Position numbers and translations under genes: made by a program. Below, in pieces: positions 13,333 to 38,752 of a DNA stretch of 64,000 nt. The stretch lies in NCBI RefSeq assembly GCF_048403405.1, contig NZ_CP183129.1; one strand, given 5' to 3'. This DNA comes from Escherichia coli. Lineage in GTDB: Bacteria > Pseudomonadota > Gammaproteobacteria > Enterobacterales > Enterobacteriaceae. The notes below the pieces were generated by a model. It was not told the origin of the DNA and ran no database searches. It saw only the letters and a program-made list of their open reading frames with translations. Positions within the stretch are counted from its first letter, which is position 1, and each line of letters starts with the position of its first letter.

Positions 13333-15033
13333 TTACATCAGCTGGCTTTCCTCACCCTCCGCGGAGCGAAAGCTAATACTCACTAACGTGCCGCCGCCGG
13401 AAGGTTGCGAAAAAGTCAGCGTCCCACTCAATCTTTCCGCGCGTTCACGCATGATATTCAGACCATAATGGCCTTCGGGTTCTTTCGGTTCACCGATGCC
13501 AATCCCGTTGTCGCGAATATAGACTGTGTGATTGCCATCCGGCGCGGTGACGCAGCTAACGGCGATTTCGCTGGCGTTGGCGTGCTTCATCGCATTCAGC
13601 ACCGCTTCGCGAATAATTTGCAACAAATGCACCTGCATTTGCGCATCCAGCGCCAGGGTTGGCAGACGGCAGTCGAGGGTCAGTTTGGCGCTGGTTTGAT
13701 TTTGTAACGTATCCAGCATTTCCCTCAACGCGGAGGGGAGATCCGCCTGCTGCAGCGTCAGGCGGAAAGTAGTTAACAGCTCGCGTAACTGCCGATAAGC
13801 ATCATTCAACGCCTGGGAAAAATCGGCCATGATACTTTGTGCGGTGGCATTATCTTCCGGTATCGAACGCTTCAGTAACGTCAACTGGATACGTAAGTAA
13901 GAAAGTACCTGAGCCAGCGAGTCGTGCAATTCGCGGGCGATGGTCGCACGTTCTTCCATCAACAATAACTGCTGAAAATGCTTCTGCGCCTGATTAAAGT
14001 ACAAACCGCGTCCCAGCATCGACGAAACGCTATTAAGCAGCGGTTCTGATGATGAAACGTGACTATTTTGCCAGTGCAGTTCGCCGTAAACCGTCTCTTG
14101 CATTGTCACCGGTAAAATCTGCATCGGCAATTCCGGGTTTGGTTGCCCTTCGCTAATCCGCCAGTTTTCACCGACATTTAACTCCAGATATTCAGCCGCT
14201 TCATTGTCGCGAACAATCTGCAAAATATGGCGGAAACAATGCACATCAATCTGGCTGGTGTTCAGCGCCTGCGAACACTGATACAACACCTCCAGACGAC
14301 GCTTGGCCTCGTGGAGATCGCGGGTCTTTTCTTCTACTGACGCCTCCAGCGAACGGTACAATTTATGTAGCTCGCTCGACATCTGGTTAAAGGTTTTTGC
14401 AAGCAGGCCAAGCTCATTCGGCAGGCTGGTATCCAGCGGCGGCGAGTCGAACTGCCCGTGTTCAATACGCTGACTGGCGGTAACCAGCTGATTCAGCGGG
14501 GCAACCACCTGATGGCGTATGCGGCGCAAAGTAAAAAAGACCAGCGTGAAAATACCGATGCCGCCAGCCAGGGAAATTGCCACCACCAGCAGCATTTTGC
14601 GTTCAGCGTAGTGCTGTAAAGCCAGCACGAACAGGTCTATCTGATTAACATAATTATTAATATTGGCCTGATACCACGGCAAGTCGCCCTTGCTGAGCCG
14701 ATTATTCATCTCCAGCCAGTTGGCATTCAGATGCGCATAGCGGGTTTTTACTGCTTCTGGCACATACCAGACGTTGAGATTGGTTAATACCGGTGAATGC
14801 AGTGCCTGCTGAAATAACTGGCGATGTGCATTGAGTTGTGGACTGCCACTTTGCAAGTCGTAGCCCAGGCGGTAACTCTGCATACGCAGCGATCCGGCAA
14901 TATTGATAGCCTCAGCGTCGCGCAAACTGCTCGCCAGAGTTAGCAGAGCGATACCCGTGGAAAGAATCGACAGCAGCACAATGTAAAAAAAGGCCCGGGC
15001 CAGACTGGCCGAGACGGGTCGTTTAACAATCAC
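13333..15033 (-). CDS. narQ: nitrate/nitrite sensor histidine kinase NarQ
   Basis: Track ORF 13333..15048; I place the start at GTG (complement of 15031-15033) giving MIVKRPVSASLARAFFYIVLL... (566 aa); HAMP and HisKA_3 (ELHDSLAQ) / HATPase domains. Confidence 0.9.
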   Translation of the reverse strand: MIVKRPVSASLARAFFYIVLLSILSTGIALLTLASSLRDAEAINIAGSLRMQSYRLGYDLQSGSPQLNAHRQLFQQALHSPVLTNLNVWYVPEAVKTRYAHLNANWLEMNNRLSKGDLPWYQANINNYVNQIDLFVLALQHYAERKMLLVVAISLAGGIGIFTLVFFTLRRIRHQVVAPLNQLVTASQRIEHGQFDSPPLDTSLPNELGLLAKTFNQMSSELHKLYRSLEASVEEKTRDLHEAKRRLEVLYQCSQALNTSQIDVHCFRHILQIVRDNEAAEYLELNVGENWRISEGQPNPELPMQILPVTMQETVYGELHWQNSHVSSSEPLLNSVSSMLGRGLYFNQAQKHFQQLLLMEERATIARELHDSLAQVLSYLRIQLTLLKRSIPEDNATAQSIMADFSQALNDAYRQLRELLTTFRLTLQQADLPSALREMLDTLQNQTSAKLTLDCRLPTLALDAQMQVHLLQIIREAVLNAMKHANASEIAVSCVTAPDGNHTVYIRDNGIGIGEPKEPEGHYGLNIMRERAERLSGTLTFSQPSGGGTLVSISFRSAEGEESQLM

Positions 15034-19061: not shown

Positions 19062-19110
19062 ACGGACCGTCCCCTCGCCCCTCTGGGGAGAGGGTTAGGG
19101 TGAGGGGAAC
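19062..19110 (+). repeat. GC-rich palindromic dispersed repeat, copy 1 (possibly Box C-type; family unconfirmed)
   Basis: CGGACCGTCCCCTCGCCCCTCTGGGGAGAGGGTTAGGGTGAGGGGAACA; internal inverted repeat CCCTCGCCCC/GGGGAGAGGG; about 46 of 49 nt identical to 32455-32512, same orientation. Confidence 0.6.
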
Positions 19111-24674: not shown

Positions 24675-24692
24675 TTCATTCTTAACTCTCAC

Positions 24693-24727
24693 GCTTACCC
24701 TGAATATTCAGGGTAAGCGGTTTTCCT
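24693..24727 (+). terminator. strong intrinsic terminator after maeB
   Basis: Perfect palindrome GCTTACCCTGAATA/TATTCAGGGTAAGC followed by GGTTTTCC, 19 bp after the maeB stop. Confidence 0.8.
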
Positions 24728-24966
24728 GAAATATATTAGCAAAGCTTATTACTGAGTTTGCGAATAATAAAAAAAGCAGTATATAAAATATCTCGATATT
24801 ATTTTATTTATATTCATGCCTCGCATATGAAAGTTTATTCATAACAGTAAATATCTCTCCATTCTTAGTGATCTACCTCACCTTTTAAACGCGCTTGCCG
24901 AATTTTGTTATTTACTCTGACGAAAAATTGTCACGATACACGAAAGTTTTTCACAGGCGGCGACTC

Positions 24967-25794: not shown

Positions 25795-26470
25795 TATTCG
25801 TGAAGCACACGCGCGCGGCGAACAGGCAATGTCCGTGGTTCTGCGCGCCAGCATTATTACCCCGGAAGCCCGTGAAGTGGCAGATCTACTGGGTTTTACC
25901 ATCACTGAATGTGATGAATCGACCCCGGTAACGGCGTCCGTTCCCGCCTGCGTGCCAGCCGATAAAACCGAAAGCCAGCGTATCCGCGAAACCATCATCG
26001 CCCAGCTACCGGAAGGCCAGTTTACCGAAAGCCTGGTCGCGCAGCTGATGGAAAAAGTGATGAAGGAAAAACAGTCACTGGAGCAGGGTGCAATGCAGCC
26101 GAGTTTCAAATCGGTGACCGGCAAAGGCGGCATCAAAGTTATTGATGGCAGCAGCGTCAAGTTTGGTCGTTTCGACGGCGCAGAGCCGCATTGCGTGGGC
26201 TTGACTGATCTTGTGACCGGAGACGACGGCAGCAGCATGGCCGCCGGTTTTATGCAGTGGGAGAACGCATTCTTCCCGTGGACCCTGAACTACGACGAAA
26301 TCGACATGGTGCTGGAAGGGGAGCTGCATGTTCGCCACGAAGGCGAAACCATGATCGCCAAAGCAGGCGACGTAATGTTTATCCCGAAAGGCTCCAGCAT
26401 CGAATTTGGTACGACATCCAGCGTGAAATTCCTGTATGTCGCCTGGCCGGCTAACTGGCAATCCCTATGA
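25769..26470 (+). CDS. eutQ: EutQ, cupin-fold protein (acetate kinase activity reported)
   Basis: 233 aa; overlaps eutP by 26 bp in a different frame. Confidence 0.88.
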   Translation: MKKLITANDIREAHARGEQAMSVVLRASIITPEAREVADLLGFTITECDESTPVTASVPACVPADKTESQRIRETIIAQLPEGQFTESLVAQLMEKVMKEKQSLEQGAMQPSFKSVTGKGGIKVIDGSSVKFGRFDGAEPHCVGLTDLVTGDDGSSMAAGFMQWENAFFPWTLNYDEIDMVLEGELHVRHEGETMIAKAGDVMFIPKGSSIEFGTTSSVKFLYVAWPANWQSL

Positions 26471-27270
26471 AAGATTTCATCACCGAAGCATGGCTAAGAG
26501 CGAATCATACGCTTAGCGAAGGCGCAGAGATCCATCTCCCTGCGGACAGTCGCCTGACGCCCTCTGCCCGGGAGTTGCTGGAAAGCCGCCATCTGCGCAT
26601 CAAGTTTATTGACGAGCAGGGCCGCCTGTTTGTTGACGATGAACAGCAGCAGCCGCAGCCCGTTCACGGGCTGACCAGTAGTGATGAACATCGGCAGGCG
26701 TGCTGCGAACTGTGCCGCCAGCCGGTGGCGAAAAAGCCGGACACGCTGACTCACCTGTCGGCGGAAAAAATGGTCGCCAAAAGCGATCCGCGTCTGGGTT
26801 TTCGCGCGGTTCTCGACAGCACCATTGCGCTGGCAGTGTGGCTGCAAATTGAACTGGCGGAACCGTGGCAGCCGTGGCTGGCGGACATCCGCTCGCGTCT
26901 TGGCAACATTATGCGCGCCGATGCGCTGGGGGAACCGCTGGCCTGCCAAGCGATTGTCGGGCTTTCTGACGAAGATCTGCATCGGCTTTCTCATCAGCCG
27001 CTGCGCTATCTTGGTCACGATCATCTGGTGCCGGAAGCCAGCCACGGGCGCGATGCGGCGTTACTCAATCTGCTACGCACCAAAGTGCGGGAAACCGAAA
27101 CCGTAGCGGCGCAGGTGTTTATAACCCGCAGTTTTGAAGTATTACGCCCGGACATCTTGCAGGCGCTGAACCGCCTTTCGAGCACGGTCTACGTGATGAT
27201 GATCCTGAGCGTAACGAAGCAGCCGCTAACGGTGAAGCAGATCCAACAACGACTGGGGGAAACGCAATGA
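26467..27270 (+). CDS. eutT: EutT, ATP:cob(I)alamin adenosyltransferase
   Basis: 267 aa; 4-bp overlap (ATGA) with eutQ. Confidence 0.88.
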
Positions 27271-28283
27271 TTATTGAACGTTGTCGTGAACTGGCGTTGC
27301 GAGCGCCCGCCAGAGTGGTTTTTCCGGATGCGTTAGATCAACGTGTGCTGAAAGCCGCGCAATATTTACATCAACAAGGTCTGGCAACGCCCATTCTGGT
27401 CGCCAATCCGTTTGAACTTCGTCAGTTTGCGCTCAGTCACGGCGTGGCGATGGACGGGCTACAGGTGATAGATCCGCATGGCAACCTCGCAATGCGGGAA
27501 GAATTTGCTCTCCGCTGGCTGGCCCGTGCGGGCGAAAAAACGCCGCCGGATGCGTTGGAAAAACTCACCGATCCGCTGATGTTCGCTGCCGCAATGGTCA
27601 GCGCCGGGACAGCGGATGTCTGTATCGCGGGCAATCTCTCTTCCACGGCGAATGTGCTGCGTGCCGGATTACGCATTATTGGCTTACAGCCAGGCTGTAA
27701 AACGCTCTCCTCCATTTTCCTGATGCTGCCACAGTACAGTGGCCCCGCATTGGGCTTTGCCGATTGCAGCGTAGTGCCACAGCCGACGGCGGCGCAGCTG
27801 GCGGATATCGCGCTTGCCAGCGCCGAAACCTGGCGCGCCATCACCGGAGAAGAGCCGCGCGTGGCGATGCTGTCGTTTTCCAGCAACGGTAGTGCCCGTC
27901 ACCCCTGCGTTGCCAACGTCCAGCAGGCGACAGAAATCGTCCGTGAGCGCGCACCGAAGCTGGTGGTGGATGGCGAGTTGCAGTTTGACGCCGCCTTCGT
28001 GCCGGAAGTGGCGGCGCAAAAAGCGCCTGCCAGCCCGCTACAAGGCAAGGCCAATGTGATGGTTTTTCCGTCGCTGGAAGCCGGAAATATTGGCTACAAA
28101 ATCGCACAACGACTCGGCGGATATCGTGCCGTCGGGCCATTGATACAAGGGCTTGCCGCGCCGATGCACGATCTCTCTCGTGGTTGTAGCGTGCAGGAAA
28201 TTATCGAGCTGGCGCTGGTGGCAGCTGTGCCGCGTCAGACAGAAGTGAACCGCGAAAGCAGTTTACAAACACTGGTTGAATGA
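27267..28283 (+). CDS. eutD: EutD, phosphotransacetylase
   Basis: 338 aa, Pta-like (resembles the C-terminal domain of maeB/pta); 4-bp overlap with eutT. Confidence 0.9.
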
Positions 28284-28321
28284 ACGGTCCCGTTCTGGAC
28301 CCTGATAAAGAGGAAAGCACA

Positions 28322-28615
28322 ATGGAAGCATTAGGAATGATCGAAACCCGGGGCCTGGTTGCACTGATTGAGGCTTCTGACGCGATGGTGAAAGCTGCGC
28401 GCGTCAAGCTGGTTGGTGTTAAGCAGATTGGCGGCGGCCTGTGTACTGCCATGGTTCGTGGTGATGTTGCAGCCTGTAAAGCCGCGACCGACGCAGGTGC
28501 TGCAGCGGCACAGCGTATCGGCGAGCTGGTATCTGTACACGTTATCCCGCGTCCGCACGGCGACCTGGAAGAAGTCTTCCCGATCGGCCTGAAAGGCGAT
28601 AGCAGCAACCTGTAA
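28322..28615 (+). CDS. eutM: EutM, hexameric BMC shell protein
   Basis: ATG 28322: [55 protein letters not shown]... (97 aa). The track start at 28280 is upstream in-frame. Confidence 0.92.
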
Positions 28616-28623
28616 TCACCCTG

Positions 28624-28660
28624 TGTGACGTCGATTCGGGCGTCACGCTCTCTCCTTTTT
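28624..28660 (+). other. stem-loop with U-rich tail in the eutM-eutN spacer (possible partial terminator or mRNA-stability element)
   Basis: GTGACG-tcgattcggg-CGTCAC followed by GCTCTCTCCTTTTTCAGTTTTCC, inside a 106-bp spacer in an otherwise tightly packed operon. Confidence 0.5.
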
Positions 28661-28721
28661 CAGTTTTCCTTCCGCGGAGGGTAGGGGGAGCTTTTACCTG
28701 AAATACGCCACGGAGGCGGGT

Positions 28722-29009
28722 ATGAAACTGGCAGTCGTCACTGGACAAATTGTTTGTACCGTACGCCATCACGGACTGGCGCATGACAAATTGCTGATGG
28801 TGGAAATGATTGATCCACAAGGTAATCCTGACGGGCAATGCGCCGTCGCCATCGACAATATTGGCGCGGGAACCGGGGAGTGGGTGTTGCTGGTGAGTGG
28901 CAGTTCTGCCCGCCAGGCGCATAAAAGCGAAACATCACCGGTCGATCTGTGCGTGATTGGCATCGTCGATGAGGTGGTGTCTGGCGGTCAGGTAATTTTC
29001 CACAAATAA
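28722..29009 (+). CDS. eutN: EutN, pentameric vertex shell protein
   Basis: 95 aa, MKLAVVTGQIVCTVRHHGLAHDKLLMVEMIDPQGNPDGQCAVAIDNIGAG... Confidence 0.9.
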   Translation: MKLAVVTGQIVCTVRHHGLAHDKLLMVEMIDPQGNPDGQCAVAIDNIGAGTGEWVLLVSGSSARQAHKSETSPVDLCVIGIVDEVVSGGQVIFHK

Positions 29010-29020
29010 GGCAGAACATC

Positions 29021-30424
29021 ATGAATCAACAGGATATTGAACAGGTGGTGAAAGCGGTACTGCTGAAAATGCAAAGCAGTGACACGCCGCCCGCCGCCGT
29101 TCATGAGATGGGCGTTTTCGCGTCCCTGGATGACGCCGTTGCGGCAGCCAAAATTGCCCAGCAAGGGTTAAAGAGCGTGGCAATGCGCCAGTTAGCCATT
29201 GCTGCCATTCGTGAAGCAGGCGAAAAACACGCCAGAGATTTAGCGGAACTTGCCGTCAGTGAAACCGGCATGGGCCGCGTCGAAGATAAATTTGCCAAAA
29301 ACGTCGCTCAGGCGCGCGGCACACCAGGCGTTGAGTGCCTCTCACCACAGGTGCTGACCGGTGACAACGGCCTGACCCTGATTGAAAACGCACCCTGGGG
29401 CGTGGTGGCTTCGGTGACGCCTTCCACTAACCCGGCGGCAACCGTAATTAACAACGCCATCAGCCTGATTGCCGCGGGCAACAGCGTCATTTTTGCCCCG
29501 CATCCGGCGGCGAAAAAAGTCTCCCAGCGGGCGATTACGCTGCTCAACCAGGCGATTGTTGCCGCAGGCGGGCCGGAAAACTTACTGGTTACTGTGGCCA
29601 ATCCGGATATCGAAACCGCACAACGCTTGTTCAAGTTTCCCGGCATCGGCCTGCTGGTGGTGACCGGCGGCGAAGCGGTAGTAGAAGCGGCGCGTAAACA
29701 CACCAATAAACGTCTGATTGCCGCAGGCGCTGGCAACCCGCCGGTAGTGGTGGATGAAACCGCTGACCTCGCCCGTGCTGCTCAGTCCATCGTCAAAGGC
29801 GCGTCTTTCGATAACAACATCATTTGTGCCGACGAAAAGGTACTGATTGTTGTTGATAGCGTAGCCGATGAACTGATGCGTCTGATGGAAGGCCAGCACG
29901 CGGTGAAACTGACCGCAGAGCAGGCGCAGCAGCTGCAACCGGTGTTGCTGAAAAATATCGACGAGCGCGGAAAAGGCACCGTCAGCCGTGACTGGGTTGG
30001 TCGCGATGCGGCGAAAATCGCGGCGGCAATCGGCTTTGAAGTTCCGGAACAAACGCGACTGCTGTTTGTAGAAACCACCGCAGAACATCCGTTTGCTGTG
30101 ACTGAACTGATGATGCCGGTGCTGCCCGTCGTGCGCGTCGCCAACGTGGCGGATGCCATTGCGCTGGCGGTGAAACTGGAAGGCGGTTGCCATCACACGG
30201 CGGCAATGCACTCGCGCAACATCGAGAACATGAACCAGATGGCGAACGCCATTGATACCAGCATTTTCGTTAAGAACGGACCGTGCATTGCCGGGCTGGG
30301 GCTGGGCGGGGAAGGCTGGACCACCATGACCATCACCACGCCAACCGGTGAAGGGGTAACCAGCGCGCGTACGTTTGTCCGTCTGCGTCGCTGTGTATTA
30401 GTTGATGCGTTTCGCATTGTTTAA
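29021..30424 (+). CDS. eutE: EutE, CoA-acylating acetaldehyde dehydrogenase
   Basis: 467 aa aldehyde dehydrogenase family with catalytic Cys context (NIICADEKV). Confidence 0.9.
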   Translation: MNQQDIEQVVKAVLLKMQSSDTPPAAVHEMGVFASLDDAVAAAKIAQQGLKSVAMRQLAIAAIREAGEKHARDLAELAVSETGMGRVEDKFAKNVAQARGTPGVECLSPQVLTGDNGLTLIENAPWGVVASVTPSTNPAATVINNAISLIAAGNSVIFAPHPAAKKVSQRAITLLNQAIVAAGGPENLLVTVANPDIETAQRLFKFPGIGLLVVTGGEAVVEAARKHTNKRLIAAGAGNPPVVVDETADLARAAQSIVKGASFDNNIICADEKVLIVVDSVADELMRLMEGQHAVKLTAEQAQQLQPVLLKNIDERGKGTVSRDWVGRDAAKIAAAIGFEVPEQTRLLFVETTAEHPFAVTELMMPVLPVVRVANVADAIALAVKLEGGCHHTAAMHSRNIENMNQMANAIDTSIFVKNGPCIAGLGLGGEGWTTMTITTPTGEGVTSARTFVRLRRCVLVDAFRIV

Positions 30425-30434
30425 GGAGTAACCG

Positions 30435-31271
30435 ATGGCGCACGACGAACAATGGCTCACCCCACGTCTGCAAACGGCGGCAACGCTGTGTAACCAGACG
30501 CCCGCCACGACGGAGTCTCCGCTGTGGCTGGGGGTAGATCTGGGCACCTGCGATGTGGTGTCGATGGTTGTCGACCGCGACGGTCAGCCGGTGGCGGTAT
30601 GCCTCGACTGGGCTGATGTGGTCCGCGACGGCATCGTCTGGGATTTCTTCGGTGCGGTCACCATTGTTCGTCGCCATCTCGACACTCTTGAGCAGCAATT
30701 CGGTCGCCGTTTTAGCCATGCGGCGACCTCATTTCCTCCTGGTACGGACCCGCGTATTTCCATCAACGTGCTGGAGTCTGCCGGACTGGAAGTGAGCCAT
30801 GTGCTGGATGAGCCAACCGCAGTTGCGGATCTGCTGCAACTGGACAACGCCGGTGTAGTGGATATCGGCGGTGGCACCACCGGCATTGCCATCGTGAAAA
30901 AGGGCAAGGTGACTTACTCGGCAGATGAAGCCACCGGCGGACATCATATCTCTCTGACTCTCGCCGGAAATCGCCGTATTTCGCTGGAAGAGGCGGAGCA
31001 GTACAAGCGCGGTCACGGTGACGAGATTTGGCCTGCGGTGAAACCGGTGTACGAAAAAATGGCGGACATTGTCGCCCGGCATATTGAAGGGCAGGGCATT
31101 ACTGATTTATGGCTGGCGGGCGGCTCTTGTATGCAACCGGGCGTGGCGGAACTGTTTCGCAAACAATTCCCGGCGTTACAGGTGCATCTACCGCAGCACA
31201 GTTTGTTTATGACCCCGCTGGCGATCGCCAGTAGCGGGCGAGAGAAAGCGGAGGGGATCTATGCAAAATGA
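30435..31271 (+). CDS. eutJ: EutJ, actin/Hsp70-fold chaperone-like protein
   Basis: 278 aa; sugar-kinase/Hsp70/actin-fold motifs (DLGTCDVVS, VDIGGGTTGIAIV). Confidence 0.88.
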   Translation: MAHDEQWLTPRLQTAATLCNQTPATTESPLWLGVDLGTCDVVSMVVDRDGQPVAVCLDWADVVRDGIVWDFFGAVTIVRRHLDTLEQQFGRRFSHAATSFPPGTDPRISINVLESAGLEVSHVLDEPTAVADLLQLDNAGVVDIGGGTTGIAIVKKGKVTYSADEATGGHHISLTLAGNRRISLEEAEQYKRGHGDEIWPAVKPVYEKMADIVARHIEGQGITDLWLAGGSCMQPGVAELFRKQFPALQVHLPQHSLFMTPLAIASSGREKAEGIYAK

Positions 31272-32448: not shown

Positions 32449-32452
32449 AAGT

Positions 32453-32574
32453 GTACGGACAGTCCCCTCGCCCCTTTGGGGAGAGGGTTAGGGTGAGGGG
32501 AACAGAGTCGCGCCGGTGCAAACAATTACCCTCACCCCGGCCCCTCGGCTTCCAGAGTGAGGGAAAAACCCACT
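32453..32574 (+). repeat. GC-rich multi-palindromic repeat, copy 2 (extended), between eutG and eutH
   Basis: Core 32455-32512 nearly identical to 19062-19110; further inverted arms GGGTGAGGG / CCCTCACCC / GTGAGGG within a 169-bp gap inside the eut operon. Confidence 0.6.
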
Positions 32575-32617
32575 TTCAGCATTGGCAATAAATAACAACT
32601 AACAGGGAGTAAAGGCG

Positions 32618-38707: not shown

Positions 38708-38752
38708 CCTGTCGGAGGTGCCGGGTGTCCTACAACACCCGGCATTAACATC

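Follow-up and report, generated by a model that had tools for sequence, protein, structure and literature searches.

A conserved two-hairpin RNA element between eutM and eutN of the Escherichia coli eut operon, and its candidacy as an internal 3' boundary of the eut mRNA

The described systems that come closest to the spacer analyzed here, which separates the shell genes eutM and eutN in the eut operon of Escherichia coli, are structures that lie inside operons. The partial terminator between rplL and rpoB is an intra-operon intrinsic attenuator. An ANTAR target consists of two small hexaloop stem-loops, the second of which overlaps a terminator, and the eut clusters of Firmicutes hold internal terminators that involve the ANTAR protein EutV and the adenosylcobalamin (AdoCbl) riboswitch RNA EutX/Rli55. 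In malE–malF, an example of model A (Dar and Sorek 2018), stable conserved stem-loops are found directly 3' of the more highly expressed upstream cistron, and both RNA abundance and translation are lower for the segment downstream. The eutM–eutN spacer was studied in a 64,000-nucleotide (nt) stretch of E. coli DNA (contig NZ_CP183129.1, hereafter the window), which carries the whole eut operon on the plus strand. Our best explanation, which we hold with about as much belief as doubt, is that the spacer encodes a conserved RNA element of two parts that provides the eutS–eutM portion of the eut mRNA with an internal 3' boundary, as a leaky terminator or as a barrier to decay. The parts of the junction are as follows.

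28322 to 28615, plus strand: coding sequence of eutM, the major hexameric shell protein (open reading frame list and RefSeq annotation of an identical E. coli genome), with its stop codon UAA at 28613-28615
28616 to 28721, plus strand: eutM–eutN intercistronic spacer, 106 nt (from the coordinates of both genes)
28623 to 28648, plus strand: hairpin 1 (H1), GUGUGACGUC-GAUUCG-GGCGUCACGC, 10 pairs, starting 7 nt past the eutM stop (folding and conservation)
28647 to 28691 (about), plus strand: hairpin 2 (H2), nested, with the outer stem (G)CUCUCUC / GGGGGAG(C) (RNAalifold consensus)
28666 to 28683, plus strand: inner hairpin of H2, CCUUC-CGCG-GAGGG in this allele, which holds TCCGCGGA at 28671-28678
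28692 to 28705, plus strand: linker motif UUUUACCUGAAAUA, single-stranded and directly 3' of H2, made up of a candidate U-tract and conserved downstream bases
28712 to 28716, plus strand: Shine-Dalgarno (SD) sequence of eutN, GGAGG, 5 nt ahead of the ATG at 28722 (from the sequence)
28722 to 29009, plus strand: coding sequence of eutN, the pentameric vertex protein (open reading frame list and RefSeq annotation), lowest in RNA and protein of the operon in published data

The first-pass annotation of this DNA had placed a structured 106-nt spacer at 28616-28721, and the end of eutM at 28615 and the start of eutN at 28722 agree with this. Its remark that most eut genes are tightly packed also holds: 12 of the 16 junctions overlap or have a gap of at most 20 nt, the exceptions being eutD–eutM (38 nt), eutM–eutN (106 nt), eutK–eutR (45 nt) and eutG–eutH (169 nt), the last of which, and not eutM–eutN, is the largest gap in the operon. 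The GTGACG...CGTCAC hairpin that it had recognized exists and extends to the 10 pairs of H1, six of which are G-C, with a folding free energy (dG) of -16.2 kcal/mol. The best 30-nt window over H1 (-17.4 kcal/mol) is within the top 0.1% of 30-nt folds on the same strand; folds at least as stable as H1 occur at 17 loci in the 64 kb, several of which are repetitive extragenic palindromic (REP) sequences or terminators. The H1 motif GTGACGYC-N(3-25)-GRCGTCAC is unique in the window, where 0 were expected. What had been taken for a U-rich tail of this first hairpin is really a C/U tract, UCUCUCCUUUUU, that forms the 5' strand of H2. The nested H2 comprises about 14-15 pairs (expected pairs are about 13-15 in K-12, Citrobacter and K. 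spallanzanii), has a dG of -18.7 in the K-12 allele, an inner loop of 4-6 nt, and a U-rich internal loop on its 5' side only. Both H1 and H2 have the GC-rich stem, of about 5-14 pairs, of an intrinsic terminator. The whole 126-nt region folds no better than shuffled sequences (z = -0.92); the case rests on the local hairpins and on their conservation.

Conservation was assessed at loci from a genome scan with EutN, which gave 48 loci, 43 of them with both genes placeable, and at seven loci added via EutS homologues (Serratia fonticola, Morganella morganii, M. psychrotolerans, the betaproteobacterium Silvimonas and two GC-rich Enterobacterales contigs, L064 and L065). A structured spacer was retained at all 50 junctions, with a length of 52-211 nt in the 43 loci of the first set and 84-144 nt in the seven added loci, and at every first-set locus a strong hairpin was found 1-19 nt past the eutM stop. 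H1 was present at 25 of the 43 (Escherichia, the C. freundii group, K. spallanzanii, Buttiauxella, Yokenella and Entomohabitans), and in all H1-bearing lineages it starts 4-9 nt past the stop and has a loop of 4-22 nt. REP-core palindromes were found instead at 14 loci (Salmonella, most Klebsiella, C. koseri, C. amalonaticus, C. sedlakii, Pluralibacter and Pseudocitrobacter), each of these spacers having one or two REP cores, and other GC-rich hairpins were found at four. H1 and a REP core were mutually exclusive (together at 0 of 43 loci), and the core (GCCKGATRVG or its complement) was absent from all 25 H1-type spacers, including that of E. coli. Since REPs are known protectors of mRNA 3' ends, the repeated exchange of H1 and H2 for REPs supports the functional equivalence of the two.

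The pairing itself is maintained. Folding of single sequences and folding of the consensus both yield H1 and H2. In the class-A alignment, 98.7% of the cells of H1 and H2 are paired, compared with 50-67% when the 3' partners are slid, and the RNAalifold consensus has three compensatory pairs in H2, the inner stem of which occurs in the compensatory variants ACCUUC/GAGGGU, GUUCUC/GAGAGC and GCCCUC/GAGGGC. The H1 stem of E. coli is identical at 13-15 of 16 bases to those of Buttiauxella, Yokenella and Entomohabitans, for which four-fold degenerate sites are 44-52% identical, and every stem change relative to any of these three genera preserves pairing; by our own arithmetic, 15 of 16 identities at a neutral identity of 0.46 would have a probability of about 1e-4. 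Six core pairs of H1 are invariant across six enterobacterial genera. When the sequences of Serratia, Morganella and L064 are included (14 distinct sequences), two-sided changes are found at 6 of the 10 pairs, which was matched by 2 of 500 shuffles. The plain compensatory events are A-U to G-C at position 6 (Morganella, L064 and Serratia), G-C to A-U at position 8 (Serratia) and G-C to A-U at position 3 (Yokenella). In an anchored alignment the core pairs are formed essentially always, compared with 17-55% in slid controls, with some alignment bias in that the H1 arms were anchored on partly conserved letters. The linker UUUUACCUGAAAUA is invariant in all 17 class-A sequences. Taken as comparative sequence evidence, these observations indicate that the stem-loops are real and under purifying selection.

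The same survey bears on whether the spacer might be largely neutral, that is, a tolerated slot in which palindromes such as REPs and older hairpins gather without any role in eut expression. Repeated invasion by REPs, the wide variation in length and content (52-211 nt), the single H2 pairs that are broken in natural E. coli alleles and the unremarkable z of the whole-region fold would all be expected of such a slot. We nevertheless judge this explanation to be quite unlikely, because conservation of the H1 stem far exceeds that of synonymous sites, with changes that preserve pairing, the layout is kept across families with different sequences, the class-A linker is invariant, and the spacer has collapsed in no lineage although the gap is at most 20 nt, or absent, at 12 of the 16 eut junctions. 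Conservation could also come from a protein that binds or cuts the H1 stem or the nested H2, for which RNase III or a nucleic-acid-binding Eut protein would be the candidates. The invariance of the six H1 core pairs in six genera despite near-saturated synonymous sites would suit such a recognition site, as would the variable loop length, which points to recognition of a hairpin and not of a fixed-spacing DNA dimer site. This too appears very unlikely from the sequences, given that outside the Enterobacteriaceae H1 changes in sequence with compensation, which implies that shape matters over sequence, and that Salmonella and Klebsiella have lost H1 entirely and their eut operons still work.

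Two stem-loops are found in the spacers of all seven added loci. Those of Morganella and of L064/L065 have the E. coli layout of H1, nested H2 and linker motif, built from different stem sequences. In both of these lineages H1 reads GCGUGGCGU...ACGCCACGC and lies about 9 nt past the stop. The outer strand of H2 is again pyrimidine (CUCCCC or GCUCUCCC), with an internal loop rich in U on the 5' side and the partner GGGGA(GC); the inner hairpins that they enclose, GCUGUC-ACACA-GACGGC or GCCGCC-GCCCUG-GCGGC, are unrelated in sequence. The linker motif again follows H2, as UUUUUUUACCUGAAAU in Morganella (U7-ACCUGAAAU) and as GUUUUACCUGAAAUC in L064/L065, and in Silvimonas CUUUGCCCGAAAUAC comes after the second hairpin. 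The conserved ACCUGAAAU part of the linker does not correspond to an enriched RNase E motif, and it is lost in the REP-type spacers.

Of 5426 complete E. coli genomes, 5406 contain the spacer in a single copy (a median of one place per genome over 5407 genomes), and no annotation lies over it in E. coli genomes. An Rfam 15 scan of positions 27000-30500 on both strands at E <= 10 gave no match, riboswitches included. A covariance model built from the class-A alignment matched only the eutM–eutN junction, in the window and in 44 other sources, and on the minus strand gave one weak partial match elsewhere and otherwise none; in three pdu loci it found nothing. The idea of a dispersed repeat was rejected in view of the single copy, the unique H1 motif and the lack of a match, within 3 mismatches, between H2 and the repeat in the eutG–eutH gap. 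Likewise, the E. coli element does not belong to the REP sequences or bacterial interspersed mosaic elements, being neither dispersed nor equipped with a REP core. It also differs from the Firmicute eut terminators, with which it shares the presence of terminator-like hairpins inside the cluster of the same pathway: it has no Rfam match, H1 loops of 4-22 nt and an H2 inner loop of 4-6 nt in place of the paired hexaloops of an ANTAR (EutV) target, and the enterobacteria use a DNA-binding regulator, EutR. The H1/H2 element is apparently undescribed, although of a well-known kind, an intra-operon attenuator or stabilizer.

The eutG–eutH repeat (32455-32560) is like the eutM–eutN element in filling a long gap of this operon, in being strongly structured and in its superficial likeness to the G-tract of H2. 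It differs from the single-copy eutM–eutN spacer in that E. coli genomes contain a median of 15 copies of it and the window contains a second one. Its gap (32449-32617, 169 nt) contains a G-rich palindromic unit, ...GGAGAGGGTTAGGGTGAGGG..., with a fold z of -2.47, and the 20-nt core GGAGAGGGTTAGGGTGAGGG has its second exact copy at 19087-19106, outside the eut operon. The linker motif UUUUACCUGAAAUA has two occurrences in the window, compared with 0.02 expected. The second of them lies in the maeB–eutS intergenic region (24692-24733), where ACGCTTACCCTGAATATTCAGGGTAAGCG, a palindrome of very high stability (-20 to -22 kcal/mol), precedes GTTTTCCTGAAATAT; apart from the linker itself, nothing else in the 64 kb matches the motif written as TTTTWCCTGAAATA (2 matches, 0.02 expected); the stem of this palindrome also contains CCCTGAATA. 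Yokenella has an ordinary terminator at the maeB–eutS position, with no motif, and the likeness in E. coli may be due to chance or may be specific to that species.

Published RNA levels for the genes around the spacer were taken from an RNA-seq table for E. coli LF82. In reads per kilobase per million mapped reads (RPKM), the uninduced and bile-induced values were 13 and 83 for eutT, 108 and 357 for eutD, 55 and 177 for eutM, 5 and 62 for eutN, 14 and 149 for eutE, 13 and 147 for eutJ, and 35 and 168 for eutG. The RNA level has its low point at eutN in both conditions, and the equal coverage of eutM and eutN that the first-pass annotation had named as evidence to the contrary was not found in this one table (55/5 uninduced, 177/62 induced). 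From eutM to eutE and eutJ the RNA drops about 4-fold in uninduced cells. The fold induction changes exactly at the spacer, from about 3x for eutD and eutM to 10-12x for eutN, eutE and eutJ; the eutE/eutM ratio moves from 0.25 uninduced to 0.84 induced and eutD/eutM is constant at 2.0. It was also reported in a Salmonella study that eut shell genes lay above cargo genes in earlier transcriptomics and that pdu genes were uniform. Uniform pdu expression fits with the absence of such spacers from pdu: a structured spacer after the major shell gene was rejected as a general rule, since pduA and pduB overlap and the pduJ–K and pduM–N gaps are 24 and 3 nt. A pdu locus from a metagenome has a 205-nt pduE–pduG gap (13990-14194 of locus L052), compared with about 15 nt in two other pdu loci, and this gap is probably an inserted repeat.

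Two further observations concern the eutD–eutM segment. The RNA of eutD and eutM (window 26467-28615) is 4-8 times that of eutT in both LF82 conditions, which suggests an internal promoter or a stabilized 5' end near the eutT/eutD boundary, with the eutM–eutN hairpins as the other end of this segment. In addition, an in-frame ATG lies 42 nt upstream of the annotated eutM start (window 28280-28321) and would give a 111-amino acid open reading frame; the LF82 paper lists eutM at 335 bp, which is the longer model, and the RefSeq start at 28322 has its own ribosome-binding site, AGAGGA.

The change in induction at the spacer would also be produced by a conditional attenuator, in which read-through of H1/H2 into eutN–eutR is regulated by induction, by translation of eutM to its stop or by a factor. 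Besides the rise of eutE/eutM at a steady eutD/eutM, and the jump in induction exactly at the spacer, this explanation draws on the position of H1 at 4-9 nt past the stop in all H1 lineages, which is in reach of a terminating ribosome, on the conservation of the linker motif in sequence across families, and on Morganella, where expression of the downstream genes would require read-through of a strong-looking mid-operon terminator. We consider it unlikely, as the expression values come from a single low-RPKM dataset in which an internal promoter before eutD, condition-dependent decay or noise would give the same numbers; moreover, no conserved antiterminator fold was found (the sole alternative fold is allele-specific), the motif is absent from REP-type and U-less spacers, and no regulator is known.

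At the protein level, proteomics of E. coli W3110 on ethanolamine (EutQ = 100) gave 96 for EutM, 1 for EutN, 27 for EutE, 10 for EutD, 37 for EutB and 39 for EutL. The first-pass annotation had proposed a leaky terminator or stabilizing stem-loop as a plausible control of the stoichiometry of shell and vertex proteins, an idea that these values restrict: termination lowers everything downstream, and with EutE, EutB and EutL at 27-39 a terminator cannot give a deficit in EutN alone, nor can it by itself account for a ratio of 96:1. The approximately 100-fold lower level of EutN than of EutM is likelier to be due to an uncoupled, rather closed eutN ribosome-binding region than to termination. 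The element would explain at most a modest excess of eutM RNA, and the EutN-specific deficit must arise at eutN itself, by translation or turnover; the part of the spacer in the control of EutN is probably indirect, through blocked coupling.

With these limits, an internal 3' boundary of the eutS–eutM mRNA could work as follows. H2 followed by UUUU would act as a weak (leaky) intrinsic terminator, and H1 and H2 would block 3'-to-5' exonucleases after cleavage downstream, in the poorly translated eutN segment. RNA containing eutM would then outlast or outnumber the RNA for eutN and beyond, as in differential operon decay of the malE–malF type. Separately from this, the long structured spacer would prevent translational coupling of eutM and eutN, leaving eutN to be translated only from its own, rather closed ribosome-binding region.

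Several features of eutN translation initiation are relevant to this last point. The duplex of the eutN SD with the anti-SD is strong (-9.5 kcal/mol), and the eutN initiation region is predicted to be costlier to open than that of eutM at 35 of 35 loci and at least as costly as that of eutE at 35 of 35, with one tie (median opening costs over the 35 loci were 13.7 kcal/mol for eutN, 6.6 for eutM and 8.2 for eutE). The result is only moderately robust: within the operon the predicted eutN opening cost is 9.3-14.8 kcal/mol, rank 3-9 of 17 depending on the folding context, and that of eutM is consistently among the lowest (4.8-7.2 kcal/mol, rank 14-17 of 17). Occlusion of the eutN ribosome-binding site by the spacer hairpins was rejected, as most of the cost comes from the -25..+60 context (13.3 vs 9.4 kcal/mol). 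A conserved helix between the eutN SD and eutN codons 11-20 was rejected as well: it is strong in E. coli, but the consensus fold is weak and different, its pairing falls from 0.85 to 0.05 with longer context, and synonymous diversity is not reduced (0.85 vs 0.91).

These data are those on which a translational insulator would be judged, meaning that the spacer mainly breaks eutM–eutN coupling and sets a low independent initiation at eutN, with effects on RNA being secondary. The deficit is specific to EutN (EutM 96, EutN 1, EutE 27), the initiation region of eutN is predicted to be harder to open than that of eutM at 35 of 35 loci despite its strong SD, and eutN RNA is the lowest in the operon, as expected of a poorly translated segment. 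On the other hand, the -25..+60 context, and not the hairpins, is the source of most of the opening cost; the SD:coding helix of E. coli is not conserved, shows no reduced synonymous diversity and vanishes with longer context; and eutN ranks only 3-9 of 17. An unstructured spacer would, furthermore, uncouple the genes equally well, which leaves selection on H1 and H2 without explanation. On balance it seems doubtful that insulation is the main role of the spacer.

A different connection between the two genes, programmed readthrough to an EutM–EutN fusion, was rejected for E. coli in view of an out-of-frame 106-nt spacer and an in-frame TAG. The spacer length is a multiple of three in 25 of 47 distinct spacers (loci L007, L008, L017, L022 and L032 among them), and in-frame, stop-free spacers number 9 compared with 4.7 expected, a mild excess that is heavily confounded by relatedness. 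A 2012 annotation paper gives a single 690-bp fused eutM–eutN open reading frame in S. Typhi CT18 and Ty2, and six different gene models for the eutM–eutN region among RefSeq records of Salmonella.

To place the hairpins between terminator and plain stem-loop, a hairpin-plus-tail score (d) of the d'Aubenton-Carafa type was used, calibrated on a canonical terminator in the window (d = +21.4). The H2 of Morganella with its seven U's scores as an intrinsic terminator (+11.9), followed by H1 of M. psychrotolerans (+5.8), H1 of B. noackiae (+4.5) and H2 of L064 (-3.2). A simple terminator scan accepts the H1 of E. coli. The tails in E. coli are poor as U-tracts (UCUCUCCU after H1 and UUUUACCU after H2), and H2 with UUUU is more of a candidate terminator than H1. 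The H1/H2 family thus seems to span the range from terminator-like to plain stem-loop, with an E. coli version that is predicted to be leaky at best. The suggestion in the first-pass annotation of a leaky terminator or stabilizing stem-loop is accordingly upheld in part, by the selected stem-loops, the terminator score of Morganella and the use of the slot by REPs, whereas the d of -20 and -18 of the E. coli hairpins does not support it.

Two of the described systems share part of this profile. With the rplL–rpoB attenuator it has in common a GC-rich hairpin with a pyrimidine/U run, a long spacer, the gene for a very abundant protein upstream and genes for less abundant ones downstream, a Morganella homologue that passes the terminator score and an E. 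coli H1 that is flagged by a simple scan; it differs from that attenuator in the poor E. coli tails with d of -20 and -18, the U-less lineages and the induced step of about 1.2-fold. Model A of Dar and Sorek fits the arrangement in which a 3' structure separates a highly translated gene upstream from a poorly translated one downstream. As in malE–malF, a stable conserved structure stands directly 3' of the more abundant cistron, as is expected of a decay barrier, the segment that follows has less RNA in the one RNA-seq table and is apparently less translated, and the same slot holds actual REP palindromes in 14 relatives. Unlike malE–malF, the E. coli element is single-copy and without a REP core, and the genes further downstream in eut recover to high RNA and protein. 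The supplementary tables of Dar and Sorek contain no eut entry.

A number of observations weigh against a leaky terminator or decay barrier at this position. The RNA-seq evidence consists of one table of low counts from one strain, and in it the drop from eutM to eutE and eutJ is only about 1.2-fold under induction, i.e., when the compartments are built; EutE, EutB and EutL, all encoded downstream, are abundant. Both E. coli hairpins lie below the terminator threshold (d = -18 for H2 in the K-12 allele and -20 for H1), and Yokenella and one Serratia spacer have no U-tract at all. Published K-12 Term-seq, which was done without eut induction, lists no sense-strand 3' end at the spacer. The spacers show no enrichment of RNase E RN|WUU motifs (1.6 per spacer vs 1.1 expected), and an RNase E RN|WUU site in the linker was rejected for this reason and because the site is unstructured in only 17 of 40. 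Finally, Liang and Deutscher reportedly found in 2015 that the upstream gene can be expressed at a lower level when a stem-loop lies within about 15 nt of its stop, an effect that would run against the high level of EutM.

The only eut-associated 3' end in the K-12 Term-seq set is a weak antisense one inside the 3' part of eutM (about window 28545, minus strand; K-12 2572217, score 946). An antisense RNA that ends at about 28545 must start in or beyond the spacer, and it could be asked whether the spacer has its function on the opposite strand, where it would be the promoter or terminator of an RNA antisense to eutM. We regard this as extremely improbable, given that the minus strand of the spacer has no promoter-like site in the window or in K-12, that no U-run follows the reverse complement of H1 or of H2, and that the covariance model finds only its one weak partial match elsewhere on the minus strand.

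The second palindromic core that the first-pass annotation had pointed out is real, and forms the apex of the inner stem of H2, but as a perfect palindrome, TCCGCGGA, it is particular to the allele of this strain; K-12 has TCTGCGGA. The allele differs from K-12 at three positions, window 28663, 28667 and 28673 (spacer 48, 52 and 58), and only 384 of 5408 matching records are at least 99% identical to it. The A52U change breaks one pair of the H2 inner hairpin, and all three changes weaken H2 and favor an alternative fold that joins UUCCUUCCG to the eutN SD and UUUCA to the start-codon region. With short downstream context, the probability predicted for pairing of the SD with the tract is 0.57-0.63; for K-12 and six relatives it is about 0. 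Pairing of the pyrimidine tract with the eutN SD and start codon, as in the minimum free energy structure of the whole region, was therefore rejected as a general feature, being specific to a minority allele and absent in K-12 and the six relatives. Folding predictions of this kind suggest a possible difference in eutN translation between the two alleles. Across seven alleles from Escherichia, the polymorphic sites are in loops or disrupt single pairs of H2, and none is in the H1 stem, the linker or the ribosome-binding region.

The proteins of a microcompartment shell are required in very unequal amounts, and little is understood of how the ratios are set in natural operons, a question that is relevant to synthetic compartments as well. 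The eut operon has a conserved RNA element between its most and least abundant shell genes, and the published RNA and protein data indicate that this element cannot be the main cause of the 100:1 ratio of EutM to EutN, pointing instead to translation or turnover of eutN. For the cloning of eutMN or eutSMNLK cassettes, the spacer is probably not inert, and alleles, or E. coli and Salmonella versions, may behave differently. A regulated attenuator, if true, would be an internal checkpoint in proteobacterial eut at which EutD and EutM are made without the rest, and would be a functional parallel, from unrelated RNA, to the antiterminator-controlled eut terminators of Firmicutes.

Elsewhere in the operon, LF82 RNA rises about 3-fold across the eutG–eutH gap (eutG 35/168, eutH 106/514), which hints at an internal promoter or stabilizer there. 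The eutK–eutR gap (38708-38752) contains a strong hairpin, GGTGCCGGGTGTCCTACAACACCCGGCATT (-20.7 kcal/mol), just ahead of eutR (start 38753), a gene that has almost no SD and the most closed initiation region of the operon, at about 20-22 kcal/mol in 4 of the 6 contexts tried.

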